The translations under genes were made by a program, and so were the position numbers. 64,000 nt of DNA from Calditrichales bacterium (GTDB taxonomy: Bacteria; Calditrichota; Calditrichia; Calditrichales; J004). Positions within the stretch are counted from its first letter, which is position 1; each line of letters opens with the position of its first letter. The stretch covers positions 640,001 to 704,000 of the forward strand of contig OZ254086.1 in assembly GCA_965267575.1 (NCBI GenBank), read 5' to 3'. The notes under the pieces were generated by a model. The model was not told the origin of the DNA. It searched no databases and saw only the letters and a program-made list of their open reading frames with translations. Of this stretch, positions 15,131 to 28,191 are shown one piece after another.

Positions 15131-15912
15131 GACAGACCATCCATGTTAAATGTGTCTCCGTCTTTCCAGACGGGAAATTTTTGGCGATACTCCTTCAGGC
15201 GTTGCGCCGAAAGAGTTACCGTTTTGACTTTCTCCGTATGGGCGTGCTCAAAAAGCGGCTCGCCCAGCGGGTCCAGCACCGCCGAATCACCGCGGTAGTA
15301 AATATCGTTACCATCGGTGCCGATGCGGTTTACGCCCACCACGTAGGCCTGGTTTTCTGCTGCCCGCGCCCGCAACAAAAGGCGCCAGTGGCTGGAACGT
15401 CTTTCCGGCCAGTTGGCTACAAAAATGGCCAGATCATACTTGTTGCCGTAATTGCGCAGCCAAACCGGAAAGCGCAGATCGTAGCAGACAAACGGGGCGA
15501 TTTTCCAGCCCTTGCAGTTAACCACCAAATGCGTTTTACCGGCACTGTATACTTTATGCTCTCCGGCCATCCGAAATAAATGACGCTTGTCATAAAAATC
15601 GAAATGGCCGTCCGGCCTTACCCAGAACATCCGGTTGAAATAACGCCCGTCGTCTTTAATGACAACACTACCAGTAATGTCGACGGAATATGCCGCCGCT
15701 TTATCCCGCATCCATTGCACGGTCCGCCCATTCGGAGAATCGGCCACGCGCTGAGGGTTCATAGTAAAGCCCGTGCTGAACATTTCCGGTAAAACAAGGA
15801 CATCGCCCCAATGGGTTACGCTGGCTAAAATCTGGTCAAAATGCGCCAGGTTGGCTTCCCTGTCTTCCCATCGCAACGCGGTTTGCACAACGGTTACTTT
15901 CAAATCCTGCAT
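15127..15912 (-). CDS. carbon-nitrogen hydrolase (omega-amidase, YafV-like)
   Basis: LPEMFSTGF, YDKRHLF, VCYDLRFPVW; E-K-C triad. Confidence 0.9.
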   Translation of the reverse strand: MQDLKVTVVQTALRWEDREANLAHFDQILASVTHWGDVLVLPEMFSTGFTMNPQRVADSPNGRTVQWMRDKAAAYSVDITGSVVIKDDGRYFNRMFWVRPDGHFDFYDKRHLFRMAGEHKVYSAGKTHLVVNCKGWKIAPFVCYDLRFPVWLRNYGNKYDLAIFVANWPERRSSHWRLLLRARAAENQAYVVGVNRIGTDGNDIYYRGDSAVLDPLGEPLFEHAHTEKVKTVTLSAQRLKEYRQKFPVWKDGDTFNMDGLS

Positions 15913-17039
15913 AAAACCTCCGCCGCCCTGTCAAGCGTCTCATCCTTTTTGGCAAAACAGAGGCGTATCACCTTATGGTCATCCCTGTTGCGGTAAAAGA
16001 CCGATGTGGGAATGGTGGCAATCTTGTGTTCCCGCGTAAGTCTTTCACAAAATGCACGATCGTTTTCGTCGCTGATGCCGGCATAGCTGAGCAATTGGAA
16101 ATAAGTTCCGGCACAGGGTAAAACCTTAAAGCGCGATTGCTGCAGCTGCCCGGCGATACGGTCGCGCTTTTGCTGGTAAAAGTGCGCCAGTTCGAGGTAG
16201 TGGTTTTCGTCTTTCAGCATTTCCGCGTAAGCGTGCTGGCTTGGCGCGTGTACGGAAAAAACTATGAACTGGTGAATTTTGCGCAGTTCTTTGGTCAATT
16301 CAACAGGGGCCAAGCAGTAGCCTACTTTCCAGCCGGTGGCATGGAACGTTTTGCCGAACGAGCTGATCACGAAACTGCGCTCAGCCAGCTCCGGGTAACG
16401 TGCCAGGCTGAGGTGTTTCTGCCCGTCAAAGACGATGTGTTCATAAACCTCGTCGGCGATCAGCACAATATTTGTATTGCGGGTGATCGCAATCAGTTGC
16501 CGGATGTCGCTATCGCCCAGCACGGCGCCTGCCGGATTGTGCGGATTGTTTAGAATAATGGCCCGTGTTTTTGGTGAGATTGCCTTTTTCAGGGCATCCC
16601 AATCAATGCCGTAGCGCGGCGGCATAAGCGGCACGGTTACCACTTTGCCAGCGCTGTATTCAACCGTAGGAATATAGATGTCATACCACGGCTCAAAAAC
16701 AATCACTTCATCTCCCGGATGCACGGTTGCCGTTATGGCGGCATACAGTGCTTCGGTTGCGCCCGATGTTACGGTGACTTCAGTTTCCATGTCGTAACGC
16801 GCGCCGTACAGCTTTTCCGTTTTAATGGCAATTTGCTCGCGCAGTTGAGGAATGCCCGGCATGGGCGCGTATTGATTGTGCCCTTCCCTGATGGCCGCCG
16901 AAATCAACTCGCTCATCCGCCGATTTATGTCAAAATCGGGGAAGCCCTGGGAGAGATTCAAAGCATCGTGCTTGTGGGACAGCGCCGTCATAACGGCAAA
17001 AATGCTGGTTTGCAGGTTCGGCTGTTTGGATGTGATCAT
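15900..17039 (-). CDS. PLP-dependent methionine aminotransferase (YbdL-like)
   Basis: NLSQGFPDF, NNPHNPAG, DEVYEH, SFGKTFHATGWKVGY; paired with an omega-amidase. Confidence 0.9.
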   Translation of the reverse strand: MITSKQPNLQTSIFAVMTALSHKHDALNLSQGFPDFDINRRMSELISAAIREGHNQYAPMPGIPQLREQIAIKTEKLYGARYDMETEVTVTSGATEALYAAITATVHPGDEVIVFEPWYDIYIPTVEYSAGKVVTVPLMPPRYGIDWDALKKAISPKTRAIILNNPHNPAGAVLGDSDIRQLIAITRNTNIVLIADEVYEHIVFDGQKHLSLARYPELAERSFVISSFGKTFHATGWKVGYCLAPVELTKELRKIHQFIVFSVHAPSQHAYAEMLKDENHYLELAHFYQQKRDRIAGQLQQSRFKVLPCAGTYFQLLSYAGISDENDRAFCERLTREHKIATIPTSVFYRNRDDHKVIRLCFAKKDETLDRAAEVLCRI

Positions 17040-17045
17040 AAGGAT

Positions 17046-17077
17046 GTGCTATGGTGTTTAGGTGTTAGTGTGTTAAA
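17046..17077. repeat. 8-bp-period array, GTGYTA family, orphan arm
   Basis: GTGCTATG GTGTTTAG GTGTTAGT GTGTTAAA. Confidence 0.8.
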
Positions 17078-17101
17078 GTTGTGCCCGGCAAATATAACAA
17101 T

Positions 17102-17135
17102 TCTTGATCATGATCATGCTCGTGATCATGCTCTT
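17102..17135. repeat. 6-bp-period array, TCRTGM family
   Basis: TCTTGA TCATGA TCATGC TCGTGA TCATGC TCTT. Confidence 0.8.
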
Positions 17136-17234: not shown

Positions 17235-17666
17235 TTAATCCGCCGGTTCCTTTGCCAGCAGAAAAGTGCCTGCCTCAAATATATAAAACATCAGCCAAAA
17301 AGCGGAAACACCGCGCAGTTTTTTGTAGCCGGGGGTCAAATCAACCCAGCCGGAGCCTTCCGCGGATGTGGCAAGCACGTAGCCAAAATTGAGCACAGCA
17401 TATACCGCGATAAAGACAATCAAATATTTAAACCATTGCGGCCAGAGACGCCAGGCGATTTTCCAGGGGTTAACGGCAGGTTCACTTTCGGCAAGTTCTT
17501 TAATGCGTTTGCTGCCATCCATCCAGGCCAGCAGCATGGCGATGGTGAGGGGGAAGGAAAGTGCCAAAGGCGGATGATAAAGATCCAAAGCAATCGACAT
17601 ATGAAAAAAAAGGCTGACTGCAGCTAAAACTACAGCCAGCCCCAAAAGCGGGTGTATCGACTTCAT
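17235..17666 (-). CDS. hypothetical membrane protein (about 4 TM helices)
   Basis: Hydrophobic segments; 1-nt overlap with the rhodanese stop codon. Confidence 0.7.
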   Translation of the reverse strand: MKSIHPLLGLAVVLAAVSLFFHMSIALDLYHPPLALSFPLTIAMLLAWMDGSKRIKELAESEPAVNPWKIAWRLWPQWFKYLIVFIAVYAVLNFGYVLATSAEGSGWVDLTPGYKKLRGVSAFWLMFYIFEAGTFLLAKEPAD

Positions 17667-21210: not shown

Positions 21211-23169
21211 TTAAACACTGTTCCTGATCGCCTCCACCGTCGCCGGGTTTTCAAGGCTGCTGACATCGCCGGTGGGCTGGCCGAGGTAGGCGGCGCGGAT
21301 AAGGCGGCGCATCACCTTGGCGTTGCGGGTTTTGGGCAGGGCGGTAGTAAAACGTATCTCTTTGGGCTTCAGCGCTTTGCCCAGGCCGTCCGTAACGCGA
21401 TCCATTAATGCCTTGCGCAGGTCTTCCGTAATTTCCACGCCTTCCTTCAGCACGCAAAAGCCCACAACGGCGTTGTCCTTTTTAGGGTCGGGGACGGCTA
21501 TGGCAGCGGATTCCACCACGGAGGGATGGGCGTTCAGCAGCGCTTCCACTTCCGCCGGGCCCAGCCTTTTGCCGGCCACTTTGATCGTGTCATCGCTGCG
21601 GCCCAGGATGTACCACAAGCCGTCCTTGTCGATGGCGGCAAAGTCGCCGTGCAGCCATACGTTGTCAAAACGGCTCCAGTAAGTATCGATGTAGCGCTGC
21701 TCGTCTTTCCAGAAACCGCGGGTCATACCAATCCACGGTTGGCGGATCACCAGCTCGCCGACGGCGCCGCGCAAGGGTTTGCCATTCTCATCCACCACAT
21801 CGGCGGCCATACCCGGCACCGGCCCGGAAAAGGCGCAGGGTTTCAGCGGTTTGAAAAAATTGCCGCAAACAATACCGCCGCTGATCTCCGTACCACCGGA
21901 GTAATTCAAAATAGGCTTGCGCTTTTCCAGCACATTCTCAAACAGCCACATCCACGATTCCGGATCCCAGGGGCTGCCGGTGCTGCCCACCATACGCAGG
22001 CTGCCCAGGTCGTGTTTGCGCAAAATGTCGCTGCCCTTGTCCTTCAACGCGCGTATCAGCGTGGGCGAAACACCGAGATGCGTCACCTTGTGTTTTTCGA
22101 TAAGCTGCCACAGGCGGCTGTGGTGCGGGTGATCCGGAGCGCCGTCATAAAACAGCATCGATGCGCCAATCGACAGCGAGCCGAACACTTCCCACGGCCC
22201 CATCATCCAGCCCATATCGGTCATCCAGTACATCACCTCGCCGCGTTTCAGGTCCATGCAGTGGTACATGTCCTGTGCGCCTTTAATCGGAAATCCGCAG
22301 TGGGTGTGGACGGCGCCCTTGGGCTTGCCGGTGGTGCCGCTGGTATAAATAATCATGCAGACATCTTCGGCGGAGGTTTTCTCCGTTTCGGCCCGGTCGC
22401 TTTGTCCGGGCACCAGCTTATTCCAAAAATGGTCACGGTTATTTGTCATCGGGCAATCTTCACGTCCGGCGCGACGCACAACAACCTGGTGTTTCACTGT
22501 GGGACAATCGGCGAGCGCTTCATCTGCAGTTTCCTTCATCGGCACCAGCTTGCCGCGACGAAAGGCACCGTCGGCGGAGAACAACGCTTTGGCCCCGGCA
22601 TCATTCAGCCGCGTGGCAATCGCCGAGGCGCCATAGCCACTGAAAAGGGGCAAAATGATTCCGCCAATTTTAATAATAGCCAAAAAGGCAATGGCGAGCT
22701 CGGGAATCATCGGCATGTACAAGCCCACCGCGTCGCCTTTTTTCAGGCCCAGTTCACGCAGGGCGTTGGCGCAGCGGCATACATCGCGATGCAATTCACG
22801 GTAAGTCCATGTTTTGCTGTTGCCCTCTTCACTTTCGTAGCGCAGGGCCACGGTATCAGCTACCTCGGTTTGCTGCCATTTGTCCAGAAGGTTGTGCACG
22901 ATGTTCATGCGGCCGCCGACACACCACTCAGGCCGCTGAATGCCAATTTTCAGATCGACGATTTTTTTATAGGGCGTGTAAAATTCGATGTCCAGGTCTT
23001 TCAATGCCGCATCCCAGAACCAGGCGATATCATCGGTGCTGCGGCGCATCAGTTCGTCATAATCCTTTACGCCATTATTTTCCATAAAGCGCTGCAGATT
23101 GCTTTCCACTATCCACCGTTTATTGGGTTGCCACACGATTTTTTGTCCAAATGGAAAATTTTGGGGCAT
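21211..23169 (-). CDS. AMP-forming acyl-CoA ligase (acetate/acetoacetate-CoA ligase family)
   Basis: YTSGTTGKPKG, WMTDMGWMMG, GRSDD, LPKTRNAKVMRR; start set at MPQNFP because the longer ORF reads through a repeat array. Confidence 0.9.
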   Translation of the reverse strand: MPQNFPFGQKIVWQPNKRWIVESNLQRFMENNGVKDYDELMRRSTDDIAWFWDAALKDLDIEFYTPYKKIVDLKIGIQRPEWCVGGRMNIVHNLLDKWQQTEVADTVALRYESEEGNSKTWTYRELHRDVCRCANALRELGLKKGDAVGLYMPMIPELAIAFLAIIKIGGIILPLFSGYGASAIATRLNDAGAKALFSADGAFRRGKLVPMKETADEALADCPTVKHQVVVRRAGREDCPMTNNRDHFWNKLVPGQSDRAETEKTSAEDVCMIIYTSGTTGKPKGAVHTHCGFPIKGAQDMYHCMDLKRGEVMYWMTDMGWMMGPWEVFGSLSIGASMLFYDGAPDHPHHSRLWQLIEKHKVTHLGVSPTLIRALKDKGSDILRKHDLGSLRMVGSTGSPWDPESWMWLFENVLEKRKPILNYSGGTEISGGIVCGNFFKPLKPCAFSGPVPGMAADVVDENGKPLRGAVGELVIRQPWIGMTRGFWKDEQRYIDTYWSRFDNVWLHGDFAAIDKDGLWYILGRSDDTIKVAGKRLGPAEVEALLNAHPSVVESAAIAVPDPKKDNAVVGFCVLKEGVEITEDLRKALMDRVTDGLGKALKPKEIRFTTALPKTRNAKVMRRLIRAAYLGQPTGDVSSLENPATVEAIRNSV

Positions 23170-23186
23170 GAGTGATCCTTTGTTTT

Positions 23187-23299
23187 CGGTCTGGAAGTCT
23201 CGAGGTCGGGGAGTCCTGAGGTCGAGTAGTACTGAAGTCTTTTTGTCCGCCAGTCGCCATCTCGGCTTCAAAACCACAAGACTTCATGACCTCATGACT
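23187..23299. repeat. two opposed 8-bp-period arrays (GTC x9, then GAC x5) downstream of four-helix-bundle gene 1
   Basis: GTC (one GTA) at 23189,197,205,213,221,229,237,245,253; GGC/AAC/GAC at 23264,272,280,288,296. Confidence 0.9.
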
Positions 23300-23716
23300 T
23301 TAAACTATTCTTCCGAAATTTTCATAGCTATAATTAGTATCGCTTACAAAATCATTATTTTTTAAATAATTGATCAATCCCAGTATTTTCGTGCTGCATA
23401 ATTCAGCTTTTTCCTTTAGCCGCACAAATTCGTCTTGGCTGATATATTCACAATCCAAAACGATATAAAGAAGACTTCTAAACTCCATAAGGGAACCATC
23501 AGCAATAGTTAAAAACCGTTTAAACTCTTTATCGGAATAACGCCCAAAGCCTTCTCCAATATTGGCCATGACAGATATCGCCGCTCTGCGAACCTGATCG
23601 GATAAAGCAAAATCTGTTTTCAACTTTGTGCTATTGTTAATCGAATAAATATCTTGGACCAACTCTCTTGCGAGTTGCCAGCATTTCAGCTCTTCAAAGT
23701 TTTTAACTGTCGCCAT
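23300..23716 (-). CDS. four helix bundle protein 1 (23S rRNA-IVP / Avd-like family)
   Basis: FEELKCWQ, DQVRRAAISVMANIGEGFGR, KEF..FL.IA.GSL.E; AT-richer than flanking genes. Confidence 0.93.
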   Translation of the reverse strand: MATVKNFEELKCWQLARELVQDIYSINNSTKLKTDFALSDQVRRAAISVMANIGEGFGRYSDKEFKRFLTIADGSLMEFRSLLYIVLDCEYISQDEFVRLKEKAELCSTKILGLINYLKNNDFVSDTNYSYENFGRIV

Positions 23717-23737
23717 TTAAGACCCCCAAATGTAATC

Positions 23738-23784
23738 CTGACTGCAAGACTCCAAGACCTCCGGACTTCAAGACTTCTCGACAG
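23738..23784. repeat. 8-bp-period array (GAC x6) upstream of four-helix-bundle gene 1
   Basis: GAC at 23740,748,756,764,772,780. Confidence 0.9.
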
Positions 23785-23786
23785 TT

Positions 23787-24407
23787 TCACGGCCTATACG
23801 GCTTACGAATCAGCTTAAATCTCTCACCTAATTTCGTGTACTCAGCACCGGCCAGGCGACCGATGGGACGCAGCTTACCAGTATCGATGCGGCCGTTTTC
23901 CAGCAGCTCATCGGCCACATGGAACATGACAATCTCACCGATTACCAGGAAGCCGCCACCGGCCTGGGGCTTACCTATTTCAACGATTTGATACAGCTTG
24001 CACTCAAAATGTATCGGCGACTCTTTGACCAACGGCGCTTTGACGACCTCAGCCTTTACCGGCGTTAAGCCGGATTGCTCAAACTCGTCAATCTCCGGGG
24101 GAAACTCCGTGGCGCAATCGTTCATTGGCTCGGCAATCTCTTCCGTTACGATGTTGACGACGAACTCACCGGTGGCTTCAATATTGCTCAGTGTGTCCTT
24201 ACGTTCACCGTCCGTGCCGCGCCGCGTGGGGCAAAAACAAATCGTCGGCGGATCGGAGGTGATGCCGGTAAAAAAGGAGAAGGGCGCCAGGTTGTATTGC
24301 CCATTTTTGGAAACAGTAGAAACGAAGGCGATCGGTCGCGGCAAAATGCTGCCGATCATCAGTTTATAATTTTCTTTATAGGTTTGTTTTTTGGGATCTA
24401 TTATCAT
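23787..24407 (-). CDS. flavin reductase family protein (DIM6/NTAB-like)
   Basis: PRPIAFVST, NLAPFSFF, KDTLSNI..TGEFVVN, PIGRLAG; start set at MIIDPK. Confidence 0.9.
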   Translation of the reverse strand: MIIDPKKQTYKENYKLMIGSILPRPIAFVSTVSKNGQYNLAPFSFFTGITSDPPTICFCPTRRGTDGERKDTLSNIEATGEFVVNIVTEEIAEPMNDCATEFPPEIDEFEQSGLTPVKAEVVKAPLVKESPIHFECKLYQIVEIGKPQAGGGFLVIGEIVMFHVADELLENGRIDTGKLRPIGRLAGAEYTKLGERFKLIRKPYRP

Positions 24408-24435
24408 TTTGTGCTTACCATTCAGTTCCACAGAA

Positions 24436-25593
24436 TTAGTCTTCGAGCCAGCTGTAGGGGTAATTTCCATCCTCCACTTCTTCGGCGTCTTTGGCAATAT
24501 TTAAGGGCCGGAATGTATCCAGCATCACCGCGTATTCATCGGTTTCCTTCGCGCCGATGGAGCCTTCATATTTTCCTGGATGCGGCCCGTGCGGCAACCC
24601 CGCGGGGTGTATGGTAATCGAGCCTTCGGAAACGCCTTTGCGGCTCATGAAATCGCCTTCCCAGTAGTAGAGCACCTCTTCGCTGTCCACGTTGCTGTGG
24701 GCGTAGGGCGCGGGGATCGATTTCTCGTGGTAGTCAAACAATCGCGGTACAAAGGAGCAAATGACAAAGCCGGGACCGGCAAAGGTTTGATGCACGGGTG
24801 GCGGCTGGTGAATCTTGCCCGTTATGGGCATAAAATCCCGGATGTTAAAAATCCAGGGATAGTAGAAGCCATCCCAGCCAACGACGTCGCAGGGGTTGTG
24901 GGCCAGCACATATTCCTGGATGCCCCGTTGCACACGCACCATGATGCGGAAGTCGCCTTTTTCATCTTTGGCAGCAGCAAAATCCGGCGTGCGGATATCG
25001 CGCTCGCAAAACGGGGCGTGCTCCATCAACTGGCCGAACTTGTTGAAATAACGCTTGGGCGGCGCCACCGGTCCAAAGGATTCGATGATCAGAAAGCGCG
25101 TGTCGCCGGTCTGGTAATGCAGCTTGTACAACGCCCCGCCGGGGATCATGATGTAGTCGCCTTCATGAAATGGCAACTGCCCGAACTGGCTTTCCAGCAT
25201 ACCCTTGCCTTTGTCCACAAAAATCACCTCGTCGGCGTGGGCGTTGCGGTAATAAAAGTCGGCTTCGTCCGCGGGCCGGCAGGTGGACATAATGACATCC
25301 TTGTTGTAGGCCAGAATGCGGCGCCCGCTGACCCAGTTGCCCTTGGGGTCAAATTTGTGCGTCTCCAAATGACGGTGGCGGTGGGTTTCATCGCTGCCGG
25401 GTAATATATGCACCGGGTGCAGCGGTCCCACTTTTTTCACCCGCGTTGGCGGATAAATATGGTACATATTGGAATAGGTGTCGGAAAAGCCCTCACGGCT
25501 CACCAGCTCTTCATAACGCAGATTATTTTTTTCATCGCGATGCTGCGTATGCCGTTTCTGCGGCACATCGCCCAGTTTTTTGTAGTAAGGCAT
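24436..25593 (-). CDS. hmgA: homogentisate 1,2-dioxygenase
   Basis: HQPPPVHQTF, CSFVPR, PYAHSNVDSEEV, HPAGLPHGPHPG. Confidence 0.95.
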   Translation of the reverse strand: MPYYKKLGDVPQKRHTQHRDEKNNLRYEELVSREGFSDTYSNMYHIYPPTRVKKVGPLHPVHILPGSDETHRHRHLETHKFDPKGNWVSGRRILAYNKDVIMSTCRPADEADFYYRNAHADEVIFVDKGKGMLESQFGQLPFHEGDYIMIPGGALYKLHYQTGDTRFLIIESFGPVAPPKRYFNKFGQLMEHAPFCERDIRTPDFAAAKDEKGDFRIMVRVQRGIQEYVLAHNPCDVVGWDGFYYPWIFNIRDFMPITGKIHQPPPVHQTFAGPGFVICSFVPRLFDYHEKSIPAPYAHSNVDSEEVLYYWEGDFMSRKGVSEGSITIHPAGLPHGPHPGKYEGSIGAKETDEYAVMLDTFRPLNIAKDAEEVEDGNYPYSWLED

Positions 25594-25604
25594 GTCCTCT
25601 CCTC

Positions 25605-25640
25605 GTGTTAGGGTACTAGTGTGCTAAAGTGTTAATGTGC
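25605..25640. repeat. 8-bp-period array (GTGYTA) downstream of four-helix-bundle gene 2
   Basis: GTGTTAGG GTACTAGT GTGCTAAA GTGTTAAT GTGC. Confidence 0.9.
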
Positions 25641-25647
25641 GCGGAGA

Positions 25648-26079
25648 TTATTGCAACTCGTTTGCTTCGCTTGCATCATAAAACACTTCAACGTCACTTA
25701 CACCGTCACTTTTACGATTTTTTAAATATTTTAATAGTCCGAGAATACGATTTCGGCAAAGGTCAATTTCATCAGAGAGCGATTCAAAATCGGCATCCGT
25801 TAATATTTTTAAATCTAAAACGATATAGGCCTGGCTTTTTAATTCTGATAATGAACTCTGCGCCATATTGAGGAAGTGAATAAATTCCTTGACGTTGTAG
25901 CGTGCAAAACCCTCCGCGATATTGCTCATAGCGGAAACAGCGGCTCGCCGCATTTGATCCGCCAGTGAATACTTCCTGTCAGTCATTAGTGGTTCAGTGA
26001 TCATGTATATTCGTTTTGTTAAAAACCTACAGCCTTGCCAGGCCTTTAAATCTTCGAAACGCTTAACTATTGCCAACAT
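25648..26079 (-). CDS. four helix bundle protein 2 (23S rRNA-IVP / Avd-like family)
   Basis: FEDLKAWQ, DQMRRAAVSAMSNIAEGFAR, KEFIHFL..A.SSL.E; AGGAGG RBS; AT-rich. Confidence 0.93.
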   Translation of the reverse strand: MLAIVKRFEDLKAWQGCRFLTKRIYMITEPLMTDRKYSLADQMRRAAVSAMSNIAEGFARYNVKEFIHFLNMAQSSLSELKSQAYIVLDLKILTDADFESLSDEIDLCRNRILGLLKYLKNRKSDGVSDVEVFYDASEANELQ

Positions 26080-26091
26080 AGCCTCCTATAT

Positions 26092-26135
26092 GCACACTAA
26101 CACATTAACACTCTAACACTATAACACAATAGCAC
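26092..26135. repeat. 8-bp-period array (TARCAC, reverse complement of the 25605 array) upstream of four-helix-bundle gene 2
   Basis: GCAC ACTAACAC ATTAACAC TCTAACAC TATAACAC AATAGCAC. Confidence 0.92.
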
Positions 26136-26139
26136 TTTC

Positions 26140-27066
26140 TCACCTGCTCACCTTCTGCTCCAGTAGGCCCAGGCCTTCGATTTCAAGTGTGATGGTGTCG
26201 CCGGGTTCAAGCCAGCCGTTAGTGTTTTCGGGGCGCAGCTCCAAAATGCAGCCGCTGCCCACGGTGCCGGAACCGAGAAGGTCTCCGGGGTAAAGGTCCG
26301 CGTCCTGTGAGGCACGGGCAATCATTTCACCAAAAGAATAGTGTATTTCCGACCAGTTGCCGTCGGAGATCAGCTGACCGTTTTTACGGGCGGTCATGCG
26401 TAAATCGTAGCCTTTGTTTTTTTCCTTTCCTTTTAATTCATCGGCAGTCACAAGAAATGGCCCCAGACCCGTGGCAAAATCCTTGCCCTTAGCCGGACCC
26501 AAACCCACGCGCATTTCGCGGCGTTGCAGATCGCGTGCGGACCAGTCATTCAAAACGCAGTAGCCCGCAATATAATTGGCAGATTCTCCAGCTTTAATGT
26601 TGCGACCTCGCTTTCCAATGATACAGCCAATCTCAAGCTCAAAATCCAACTCCGCGGTTGCCTGCGGCTTTTTGATAGTCGCCTTGTGGCCATAAAGCGC
26701 ATGGGGATTTGAAAAATAGAAAACCGGTATCTCGTACCATTCGGGCACTACGTCAAGGTCACGCAAAGCCCGGGCCGTTTTTACATGGCGCTCGAAAGCA
26801 TAGAAGTCGCGAAAATTGGCCGGACGCAGGAGCGGTGGCAGGAAATGAATCTCGCTTTCATTGAGAAGCGCGTCTGCCACAGGCTGCGTTTGCAATTCTT
26901 CAAGTTCCTGAAAACCGGCCGGCCAGTCACGCAAAGCGTCGTCCACACTAAAAGGAACGGCCTGCCGGCCGGCAGCCAGTTTCATCGCATCGTATAGCTG
27001 CCCGCCGATCGCCAATCCAAGACGTACTTCCGCGTAATCGGGCAGCGCATAGTTAAATAACTTCAT
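26140..27066 (-). CDS. fumarylacetoacetate hydrolase family protein
   Basis: RDFYAFERH, LDFELE, NDWSARDLQ, KGKDFA, PGDLLGSGT. Confidence 0.92.
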   Translation of the reverse strand: MKLFNYALPDYAEVRLGLAIGGQLYDAMKLAAGRQAVPFSVDDALRDWPAGFQELEELQTQPVADALLNESEIHFLPPLLRPANFRDFYAFERHVKTARALRDLDVVPEWYEIPVFYFSNPHALYGHKATIKKPQATAELDFELEIGCIIGKRGRNIKAGESANYIAGYCVLNDWSARDLQRREMRVGLGPAKGKDFATGLGPFLVTADELKGKEKNKGYDLRMTARKNGQLISDGNWSEIHYSFGEMIARASQDADLYPGDLLGSGTVGSGCILELRPENTNGWLEPGDTITLEIEGLGLLEQKVSR

Positions 27067-27099: not shown

Positions 27100-28191
27100 C
27101 TAGAGGTTCCCGCGGCGTTCCTGCTCGCGCTCGATCGACTCAAACAGGGCCTTGAAATTGCCCTTGCCAAATCCGGACGCGCCTTTGCGCTGGATGATCT
27201 CATAAAACAGAGTCGGGCGATCCTGGATGGGTTTAGTGAATATCTGCAGCAGGTAGCCGAATTGATCCTTGTCCACCAAAATGCCCAGCTTGGCGAGATC
27301 TTCTATGTTCTCGTCGATTTCGGGCACCCGTTCCGGCAGTTCGTCATAGTAGGTCCTGGGAACTTCCAGAAACTCGACGCCATTTTCGGCCAGGCGGCCA
27401 ACGGTGTGAACAATATTGTTGGTGTCAAAAGCGATATGCTGAATACCCGGTCCGCCGTAAAACTCTACAAATTCCTCGATTTGCGATTTGCGAAGACCGG
27501 CGGCAGGACGGTTTATCGGCATCTTCAAACGCTCGTTTTCGTTGGCCACAACAATGGAACGCAGGGCCGAATATTTTGTGGAAATGTCCTTGTCATCGGC
27601 GCTCCAGAAGCGGTGCCAGCCAAACACGTGCTCGTACCACTCTGCCGTTTTCTGCATTTGGTTTTCCGGTTGGTTGCCAACAAAGTGATCCACAAAATTT
27701 AGGCCGACAGGATTAATATTCAGAGGGCTGGTGCGTGGCTCATAGCCGGGCATGAAAGCGCCTTTGTAATTATCACGCTGTACAAAGCTGTGCACCGTAT
27801 CTCCGTACGTTTTGATCGTCGCGATGATCACTTCGCCGTTTTCGTCTTTCAAGCGCTTTGGCTCCTGTACGGACTCAGCACCGCGTTCGGTAACATATTT
27901 CCAGGCGCCTTCCGCGTTATTGGTCCAGAAAGCCACATCGCGTACGCCGTCGCCGTGCTTTACCAGATGCTCGTTCAGCGGGGAATCGTCTTTATAGGGG
28001 GTACTTAAAACAATCCGTACTTTATTTTGCTGAAGCATGTAAGACGCATGATCACGGTTGCCCGTCTCAAGACCGGAATAAGCTTTCAGTTCAAATCCGA
28101 ACTGCTGCATATAGTAAAAAGCGGACTGACGGGCATTGCCCACAATGAGGTGGATATGATCCGTCCCCATAAATTCAAAATCTGCCTTCAT
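27100..28191 (-). CDS. hppD: 4-hydroxyphenylpyruvate dioxygenase
   Basis: DHFVGN, GIQHIA, LLQIFTK, EIIQRKG..GFGKGNFKALFESIE. Confidence 0.97.
   Translation of the reverse strand: MKADFEFMGTDHIHLIVGNARQSAFYYMQQFGFELKAYSGLETGNRDHASYMLQQNKVRIVLSTPYKDDSPLNEHLVKHGDGVRDVAFWTNNAEGAWKYVTERGAESVQEPKRLKDENGEVIIATIKTYGDTVHSFVQRDNYKGAFMPGYEPRTSPLNINPVGLNFVDHFVGNQPENQMQKTAEWYEHVFGWHRFWSADDKDISTKYSALRSIVVANENERLKMPINRPAAGLRKSQIEEFVEFYGGPGIQHIAFDTNNIVHTVGRLAENGVEFLEVPRTYYDELPERVPEIDENIEDLAKLGILVDKDQFGYLLQIFTKPIQDRPTLFYEIIQRKGASGFGKGNFKALFESIEREQERRGNL

Follow-up and report, generated by a model that had tools for sequence, protein, structure and literature searches.

How did two small four-helix-bundle (4HB) genes of the 23S rRNA intervening sequence (IVS) protein family come to sit between protein-coding genes of an operon, and what are the short tandem repeats that bracket them? 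The question is raised by a stretch of 64,000 nucleotides of a Calditrichales bacterium (assembly GCA_965267575.1, contig OZ254086.1, positions 640,001 to 704,000), referred to below as the window (64 kb). Gene coordinates are positions in this window, and the minus strand encodes every gene of the locus. We hold with moderate confidence that the two genes are the cargo of intervening-sequence-type cassettes that reside outside rRNA, move as a gene together with its flanking arms, and have gene-less derivatives. The two genes are as follows.

23300-23716, minus strand: 4HB gene 1 (cassette 1), 138 aa; PF05635 E 5.4e-34, 117.1 bits; TIGR02436 109.1 bits
25648-26079, minus strand: 4HB gene 2 (cassette 2), 143 aa; PF05635 E 6.8e-31, 107.1 bits; TIGR02436 100.9 bits

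Both proteins scored above the curated cut-offs of PF05635 (33.8 bits) and TIGR02436 (24 bits), the profiles of the 23S rRNA IVS protein (S23p), which confirms the family assignment made in the preliminary description of this locus. The same description had counted 57 identical residues out of 119 between the two paralogs by hand; the strong divergence stands, while the count is corrected to 62 out of 134 by BLASTP. Each gene possesses its own ribosome-binding site within the loop enclosed by the arms (in gene 2, AGGAGG placed between the 5' arm and the ATG). The closest solved relative of the gene 1 protein is XCC0516 (2gsc; E 2.6e-14), the entry of which was deposited with five chains. The best matches of the gene 2 protein in species-representative genomes (43 loci) were 31-58% identical over the best segments, and six metagenomic loci were 38-48% identical to the gene 1 protein. 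No protein with an identity of at least 50% to either of the two was found in the 31-genome census described below. PF05635/TIGR02436 is a very large family, for which we know of no function outside diversity-generating retroelements (DGRs).

Each gene is enclosed by two degenerate tandem arrays, termed arms here, and an additional array was found in cassette 1.

26085-26139, minus strand: 5' arm of cassette 2, ~5-6 GTGYTANN units, sense strand G-rich, starting 3 nt past the stop codon of the fah-like gene
25598-25645, minus strand: 3' arm of cassette 2, ~4-5 TARCACNN units, sense strand C-rich
23730-23795, minus strand: 5' arm of cassette 1, ~5-6 units of NNRAGTC/GGTC with period 8, G-rich on the sense strand, beginning a few nt past the flavin-reductase stop codon
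23180-23250, minus strand: 3' arm of cassette 1, ~6 GACYNNNN units, sense strand C-rich
23258-23306, minus strand: extra array A', just past the stop codon of gene 1, in the orientation of the 5' arm; absent from the preliminary description

The array units read GAAGTCNN in cassette 1 and GTGTTANN in cassette 2, and the repeat units of the window cassettes are also written GAAGUCNN and GUGUUANN. As had been described, the arrays are degenerate with a period of 8 nt and their two sides are reverse complementary: the arms of cassette 1 (23189-23223 and 23740-23774) are 77% complementary over 35 nt, and those of cassette 2 (25605-25640 and 26092-26127) 78% over 36 nt. The use of a different repeat unit by each cassette holds as well, and cognate arms matched each other far better than the arms of the other cassette. 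Tandem Repeats Finder (TRF) called arrays at 23188-23239 (period 8 or 16), 23740-23777 (period 8), and 26093-26136 (period 8), and called no array at 25605-25640. When periodicity was judged strictly (>21 of 32), the upstream arms of the two window cassettes passed and the downstream arms, with scores of 20, did not.

Both cassettes fill the spacer between their host genes exactly. A gap of 3-8 nt separates the stop codon of the upstream gene from the start of the 5' arm, and the 3' arm extends up to the next ribosome-binding site or stops just short of it (directly before GAGGAGAGG of the hmgA-like gene in cassette 2; ~8 nt ahead of AAGGA of the CoA-ligase gene in cassette 1), leaving the stop codon and the ribosome-binding site of the host just outside the arms. 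An intrinsic (Rho-independent) terminator was rejected as an account of the arms; three terminator-like sites were detected in 23000-26300 against 4.3 expected, none of them at the arms, and no T run follows the 3' arm of either cassette. Neither was there an excess of promoters in a scan that covered the sigma-70-like type only (three sites against 4.1 expected).

Arms of this kind surround every member of the family in this genome. Four PF05635 genes were detected, all with inverted short-period arms built of four different units (GAAGTCNN, period 8; GTGYTANN, period 8; GAATTGG, period 7; GATCAY, period 6), and their inverted-arm scores fell between 15 and 17 (15.0 and 16.0 for the window cassettes). 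The threshold of 14.0, which corresponds to the 99th percentile of non-cognate flank pairs, was exceeded by four of the four PF05635 genes as opposed to four of the 688 other open reading frames (ORFs) of 100-172 aa that served as the control in the same genome (Fisher 7e-9). None of the 688 control ORFs was periodic on both flanks. A census of this genome and 30 relatives yielded 95 PF05635 matches over the cut-off, and the 90 loci with at least 250 nt on each side were used (four near contig ends and one unfetched were dropped). The 99th percentile of non-cognate flank pairs was exceeded by 51 of these 90 loci. Periodic flanks were found upstream in 51 and downstream in 52 loci, on both sides in 40 of the 90, and with the same period on both sides in 38; the period was 7 in 74 and 8 in 25 of the 103 periodic flanks. 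The units of the two arms were reverse complementary (similarity of at least 0.85) in 58% of 36 cassettes but in 3.8% of non-cognate pairs, and the arms hold a median of 4.4-4.6 units. In other phyla (Acidobacteriota, Chloroflexi, Verrucomicrobiota, Bacteroidota, and others), 17 of the 43 usable loci (of 49) passed a stricter threshold. Altogether, the enrichment of inverted arrays at members of the family, which the preliminary description had proposed as a test, was observed both in this genome and across the 31 genomes.

The fourth PF05635 gene of the genome (G000:C1:1528447-1528915; L004) lies between ORFs read by eye as 2-oxoacid dehydrogenase E2 and E3. Its downstream 6-nt array is in frame within the C-terminus of the protein and encodes an Asp/His-rich tail.

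The arms of both cassettes were predicted to pair in the minimum-energy as well as the centroid structures of whole-cassette RNA folds, as helices of ~6 bp with 2x2 loops between them in cassette 1 (z -3.06) and as helices of ~7 bp with single mismatches between them in cassette 2 (z -1.38). The cognate arm duplexes of the four cassettes were computed at -48.8, -42.2, -33.1, and -31.8 kcal/mol, the first two being those of the window, whereas all twelve non-cognate combinations fell between -8 and -24 kcal/mol and none of 300 shuffles equaled the cognate duplexes. Single arms are unstructured on their own. The proposal that the arms pair as RNA is thus borne out in silico by the folds and the duplex energies. 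Among the mismatched positions of the arms, G.U was found more often than A.C on the sense strand (62 vs 38, p 0.02; by locus 21 vs 15 with 15 ties). The order of units in the 3' arm was shuffled, and in 26 of 35 loci (p 0.006) the observed complementarity exceeded the mean of the shuffles. Shuffling of units seldom reduced complementarity, implying that what the two arms have in common is the consensus of the unit and that they are not exact mirror images. Orthologous cassettes with proteins 61-75% identical retain an identical or almost identical unit in both arms, and this argues against pure neutrality.

Whether the cassettes are insertions can be judged from the host operon, which is transcribed in the order of hppD, the fah-like gene, 4HB gene 2, the hmgA-like gene, the flavin-reductase-like gene, 4HB gene 1, and the CoA-ligase-like gene.

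27100-28191, minus strand: 4-hydroxyphenylpyruvate dioxygenase gene (hppD); TIGR01263 448.7 bits against a cut-off of 277, a solid call
26140-27066, minus strand: fumarylacetoacetate-hydrolase-family gene (fah-like), upstream host of cassette 2; assigned at the family level only
24436-25593, minus strand: homogentisate-dioxygenase-like gene (hmgA-like), between the two cassettes; orthologues ~70% identical in 10 relatives
23787-24410, minus strand: flavin-reductase-like gene, upstream host of cassette 1
21211-23172, minus strand: acetate/acetoacetate-CoA-ligase-like gene, downstream host of cassette 1; ATG at 23170-23172

The assignment of this operon to a pathway of amino-acid breakdown rests on the solid hppD call and the conserved gene order; the hmgA-like gene (59 bits against 510) and the fah-like gene (78 bits against 375) match their families far below the NCBIfam equivalog cut-offs. 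The coordinates agree with the earlier placement of two AT-rich, co-oriented 4HB genes at the fah/hmgA and flavin reductase/CoA ligase junctions, and the GC content is 0.35-0.41 across both cassettes as opposed to 0.50-0.59 in the surrounding flanks. Ten relatives hold the operon (with hmgA-like proteins ~70% identical), and none of the ten carries a PF05635 gene at either junction. In four genomes of one genus, the spacers are empty and short, 44-54 bp at fah/hmgA and 33-51 bp at reductase/ligase. That the two window genes are insertions relative to the ten operon-holding relatives is supported by these observations; empty alleles, the absence of which the preliminary description would have counted against its proposal, do exist. 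No match to transposase, integrase, or reverse transcriptase families was found among the 48 ORFs called in the window, which agrees with the preliminary description.

The junctions of the relatives' operon contain other inserts, read by eye as a membrane ORF of ~370 aa, a two-gene PIN/VapBC-like pair, and an outer-membrane-like ORF, and a gene-less GGAAGTRG array was seen at the reductase/ligase junction. Insertion seems to be tolerated at operon junctions. The inserts are located as follows.

L034, 2963-4243: insert at an operon junction of a relative
L035, 7213-8492: insert at an operon junction of a relative
L037, 7198-7944: insert at an operon junction of a relative
L038, 7168-8484 and 9098-9410: inserts at operon junctions of a relative

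The 82 intact proteins of the census formed 100 pairs with an identity of at least 50%, of which 15 share both flanking genes, four share one, and 81 share neither. The pairs with no shared flank include one of 90% identity between two taxonomic families and one of 82%, the latter of which keeps the same 8-nt unit. The members of the 90% pair (G030:C53:8071-8379 and G009:C204:32661-32966) were seen in unrelated contexts with different weak flank arrays. As housekeeping orthologues within one family are only ~70% identical, a pair of 90% across families suggests recent horizontal transfer. In contrast to the relocated pairs, an orthologue of cassette 4 (G003:C2:82439-82747) occupies the same E2/E3 junction in another genus, with a protein identity of 52% and a different 6-nt unit. 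The pattern of flank sharing implies that the gene and its arms act as one unit, at times long kept in place and at times relocated. Where neighbors could be assigned, they were on the strand of the PF05635 gene far more often than on the opposite strand (50 vs 2 upstream, 49 vs 1 downstream); both neighbors were co-oriented in 30 loci and both opposite in none. Given this near-constant co-orientation and the lack of a promoter excess, the cassettes most likely ride on the transcript of the host operon.

We therefore consider the following course of events for the cassettes, which we regard as somewhat more probable than improbable. A cassette would comprise a 5' arm, a ribosome-binding site, the 4HB gene, and a 3' arm, the arms being inverted arrays of one short unit, which is of 8 nt in the window cassettes and in relatives mostly of 7 nt. 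Once transcribed into polycistronic RNA, the 5' arm (G-rich) would pair with the 3' arm (C-rich) to form an interrupted duplex of ~35-45 bp, made of 6-7 bp helices with mismatches of 1-2 nt between them. Such pairing would loop out the cargo and place the stop codon of one host gene close to the ribosome-binding site of the following one. The duplex is a likely substrate of RNase III, judging from the S23p-bearing IVSs of 23S rRNA and in particular the Coxiella element, and we infer excision by this enzyme on the same grounds. Gene-less arrays would be decayed or non-autonomous derivatives of cassettes.

Such gene-less arrays are numerous. An autocorrelation scan, used in place of a genome scan with TRF that passed over degenerate arms such as the ones of both window cassettes, recovered at least 86 strong arrays. 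They are spread over 66 intergenic regions and fall into a few unit families, and 61 have a period of 8. Arrays of the GAAGTC type with four or more units occupy 28 sites, two of which flank gene 1, and GTGYTA-type (GTGTTA) arrays occupy 53 sites, two of which flank gene 2, whereas controls with a permuted 4-letter core yielded 0-3 sites. The earlier view of the arrays as cognate to the cassettes is not supported as far as it implies that they are specific to them, since 26 of the 28 arrays of the GAAGTC type and 51 of the 53 of the GTGTTA type are located away from any PF05635 gene. The packaging is not specific to the 4HB family either. Of six genes in the genome for GxxExxY/PDDEXK_3 (TIGR04256) nuclease-like proteins, three are in inverted arms of 9-nt units with scores above the threshold, and these genes represent the same packaging with a different cargo.

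G000:C1:4493381-4494346 (L118): GxxExxY locus in arms
804361-804711: GxxExxY gene in arms
2261058-2261393: GxxExxY gene in arms
Units of these arms: CGCAAAGAY, CATGAAGRN, and CTCTGYGNN; two of the genes at these loci are in tandem

In the window itself, a gene-less composite array (17043-17135) consists of ~4 units of GTGYTANN followed by ~5 units of GATCAY. It lies between the start of an aminotransferase gene (15900-17039, minus strand) and an ORF at 17235-17666, and the array that is C-rich on the sense strand abuts the downstream start, matching the polarity rule given below. Elsewhere in the genome (G000:C1:4290000-4295700; L123), long intergenic stretches of nested 8-nt arrays (GAAGTGAT, GGGTRACN, and AATTACGA) and their inverted partners were seen; they bracket multi-copy non-coding hairpin repeats (GTCATTCTGAAC...GTTTCAGAATC; CCTTCCCTTAGGCTAAGGGAAGG).

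Several results weigh against the cassettes as we read them. Among the census members of the family, 39 of 90 lack arms above the threshold. The z-scores of the whole-cassette folds (-3.06 and -1.38) are modest, and in cassette 1 the long-range pairing faces competition from a predicted local hairpin of the array A' and the 3' arm (-40.4 kcal/mol, z -2.35, equaled in 6 of 200 shuffles). Besides the G.U and A.C positions, there are 144 arm mismatches of neither type, and only one of 35 loci was individually significant (p<=0.05) in the shuffling of unit order, a comparison of low power with 4-5 units; the signal of selection for base pairing is weak. Of the 86 strong arrays, 28 have an inverted partner within 800 nt and 58 have none detectable, and in some spacers a G-rich array of one family is combined with a C-rich array of another, which are unable to pair. 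Finally, no relative nearer than ~50% to either window protein was found, and the insertions are for this reason undatable.

The best of the alternatives, which we nevertheless regard as unlikely, is that the arrays are binding platforms for the 4HB protein, with one subunit per unit and each paralog serving its own array family as a RAYT serves REP elements, and that pairing of the arms is secondary. It agrees with the four different units carried by the four paralogs of the genome, with the fact that GTGTTANN, GAAGTCNN, and GATCAY are also the units of its largest array families, and with arms that share a consensus without a mirror order of units. The median number of units in an arm (4.4-4.6) can likewise be set beside the five chains of the XCC0516 entry and beside Avd, which is described in the available part of 10.1101/2023.10.23.563531 as a pentameric barrel binding stem-loops.

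The distribution of unit families bears on this alternative from both sides. We counted overlapping matches to four-unit patterns with no more than three mismatches. There were 150 matches to GTGTTANN and 47 to GAAGTCNN in this genome, none to either in the 30 relatives, and none to the reversed-pattern controls, and the 30 relatives also lack close homologues of both proteins. Other families are abundant in two genomes each (AGTTATTN, 54 and 38; AATTACG, 90 and 49), and GGGAAYT had at least ten matches in nine genomes. One reversed control, TYAAGGG in four copies, had 148 matches in one relative and 80 in another (G014 being one of the two), and represents a further lineage-specific array family. 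When five families were tabulated over 31 genomes, a PF05635 gene flanked by the unit was present in 10 of 15 array-rich cells vs 5 of 140 others; this association is inflated, since families were selected for flanking PF05635 genes, the genomes are kin to one another, and each cassette contributes a few matches through its own arms. Five of the 15 array-rich cells have no such gene (G027 and G021 for GGGAAYT and G018 for AATTACG among them), and in the genome of the window a AATTCAGC-type family of about a dozen arrays counted by eye has no PF05635 partner.

Protein and unit co-vary to a certain degree, as the preliminary description had asked to be checked: the mean protein identity is 0.40 between cassettes with the same unit and 0.27 otherwise, a difference reached in none of 5000 permutations. 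That part of the check stands, but counter-examples do not fit it. The unit of cassette 3, AATTGGG, recurs with proteins that have only 17-19% identity to its own, whereas its relatives of 61-71% identity carry AATTACG-type units, and a strict rule of one paralog to one family is ruled out by this and other cases. The co-variation is, moreover, also expected from common descent of gene and arms. We regard it as unlikely that PF05635 proteins are trans-acting partners of lineage-specific 6-9-nt array families, in which a five-subunit ring would bind about five units of the repeat found in its own arms and drive or maintain the bursts of gene-less arrays at gene boundaries. If true, this would give the family a function and explain the long-noted excess of heptamer repeats in bacterial intergenic DNA as well as the origin of rRNA IVSs.

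The arms could instead be a by-product at the DNA level, generated by slippage or by templated addition of repeats to both 3' ends of a break, and the cassettes and gene-less arrays selfish or neutral DNA with no function of the arms in RNA. The polarity of the arrays supports this idea, as such an origin would leave a single unit in inverted arrays, the G-rich strand facing inward on both sides. On the top strand of the genome, arrays nearer to the left-hand gene are rich in G and those nearer to the right-hand gene rich in C (54 vs 14). This holds in every arrangement of the neighboring genes, including pairs of minus-strand genes (18 vs 6), and the polarity is thus independent of the direction of transcription. 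Where an array has a partner, the partner is on the expected side in 21 vs 6 cases. Of the 51 census loci scoring above 14, the 5' arm has more G than C in 41, more C than G in six, and a tie in four (16 vs 1 in other phyla). As the arms are inverted, their chirality is the same on both strands and is uninformative on the orientation of the cargo.

At gene boundaries, units of 6-9 nt are repeated in tandem and the G-rich strand runs from gene to spacer, as in the Xanthomonas/Nostoc type, and the same polarity is on record for the Xanthomonas GGGAATC repeats (available part of PMC4692102). The by-product idea is also compatible with the little mirror order of units, with the predominance of mismatches other than wobble pairs, and with the copy number that varies among Coxiella strains according to the available part of PMC4990558. 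Against it, the complete genome contains no RVT_1 match and no enzyme for such an addition was identified in it. The retention of the unit in both arms of orthologous cassettes (proteins 61-75% identical) points to constraint or continual homogenization, and the co-orientation of both neighbors in 30 loci against none points to selection via transcription. The polarity is explained equally well at the RNA level, where a G-rich-first order may keep long unpaired stretches rich in C out of reach of Rho, whichever side the transcript enters from. Taken together, we judge a DNA-level by-product to be improbable, and somewhat more so than binding platforms.

Two ordinary genes that appear to be bracketed by arrays, an oxidoreductase gene (G000:285477-286457) and a methyltransferase-like ORF (L120), were rejected as cassettes; their arrays have the opposite chirality and were read as belonging to two separate elements on either side of the gene. 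That ordinary small genes happen to lie among tandem repeats common in the intergenic DNA of this genome, as the at least 86 arrays in 66 intergenic regions adjoining varied genes (oxidoreductase, methyltransferase-like ORF, glyoxalase, thiamine-binding protein) might suggest, is highly improbable and is disfavored by the controls (arms in 4 of 4 PF05635 genes against 4 of 688 ORFs, none of the latter periodic on both flanks), by the opposite chirality at ordinary genes (C-rich before the start and G-rich after the stop, the mark of two neighboring elements), and by the recurrence of the architecture in 31 genomes and several phyla.

The cassettes as we favor them can be compared with several known systems. 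Repetitive extragenic palindromic elements with their transposases (REP/RAYT) and miniature transposable elements with inverted repeats (MITEs) comprise many short gene-less intergenic repeats that form hairpins, beside few gene-bearing copies, in lineage-specific families. The arrays described here resemble them in combining lineage-specific gene-less repeats with few gene-bearing copies and differ from them in a cargo that is no known transposase and in arms that are 6-9-nt tandem arrays rather than a single palindrome. As regards a transposon or MITE with terminal inverted repeats, inverted arms are present and no transposase is in the window, and the empty sites by which a target-site duplication would be judged come from genomes of ~70% protein identity, which are too distant to be aligned. 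Integron gene cassettes are promoter-less, co-oriented small genes that are expressed from an outside promoter and have structured boundaries with a single attC. Small co-oriented genes with structured boundaries are common to both systems; in contrast to integron cassettes, the window cassettes have arms on both sides and the insertions are scattered through housekeeping operons. An integron gene cassette is ruled out by the arrays on both flanks and the lack of an integrase among the 48 ORFs of the 64-kb window.

Avd, the accessory protein of DGRs, is a four-helix-bundle protein that forms a positively charged pentameric barrel and works with a structured RNA composed of a template-flank duplex and 'Avd-binding stem-loops', as far as the available parts of PMC10053308 and 10.1101/2023.10.23.563531 describe it. 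The window proteins are homologous to Avd but are encoded by stand-alone genes inside operons. No RVT_1 match was found in the whole genome (98% complete, one contig), including the window, and a DGR is ruled out on this basis.

The intergenic G-rich heptamer arrays of Xanthomonas (GGGAATC) and Nostoc (GGGGA(C/T)T) have been treated as quadruplex-forming (Rehm et al., 2015; available part of PMC4692102). According to the same source, there are ~70 convergent (inverted) pairs of the Xanthomonas repeat per genome, the G-rich strand is the coding strand just past stop codons and the non-coding strand just before start codons, and the length of the arrays differs between close species. The arrays of this study are alike in having short units at gene boundaries, inverted pairs, and an identical polarity; a single array polarity is thus already published for the Xanthomonas heptamers. 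On the other hand, the units in the genome of the window are mostly of 8 nt, and many of them (GTGTTANN and GAAGTCNN among them) cannot form quadruplexes. The text of PMC4692102 contains neither '23S' nor 'intervening' (0 occurrences) and hence no link to PF05635 or the IVS protein.

The closest parallel is the IVS of 23S rRNA. In Coxiella burnetii, a stem of 28 bp encloses the S23p ORF, tandem GACAGAT heptamers occupy the 5' arm in a copy number that varies with the strain, and RNase III cuts at the first repeat; ORF-bearing IVSs of 23S rRNA are also cited for Leptospira and others (all from the available part of PMC4990558). The window cassettes share with rRNA IVSs the protein family in the loop, the complementary termini as a stem, the lack of a transposase, and the size of ~430-620 nt, and with the Coxiella element the tandem short repeats in the 5' arm just upstream of the ORF. 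They differ in location, as both window copies lie between protein-coding genes, and not in a helix of rRNA, and the other two copies of the genome are flanked by ORFs. Their predicted stems are interrupted about every 8 nt, whereas the 28-bp stem of Coxiella is nearly perfect, and their ORFs are intact with good ribosome-binding sites, whereas that of Coxiella is reported to be decaying (available part of PMC4990558). Cutting by RNase III has been demonstrated for the Coxiella IVS, and for the window cassettes we infer it.

PF05635 genes inside cas loci (available part of PMC3936711) and in rRNA insertions of Candidate Phyla Radiation (CPR) bacteria (available part of 10.1101/2024.02.27.582315) are in print. 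We found no account of PF05635 genes within inverted periodic arrays outside rRNA in a literature search the scope of which left aside supplements and most subscription journals, where such an account is possible; none of the papers listed named TIGR02436. In annotation, 4HB genes that interrupt operons are best treated as insertions and not as components of the pathway. More broadly, packaging in cassettes would tie the ORF-bearing IVSs of rRNA, the polarized boundary repeats of the heptamer type, and the stray 4HB genes of operons and cas loci to one kind of element, the common features of which are arms of periodic units, one polarity, transcription together with host operons, and gene-less derivatives specific to a lineage.

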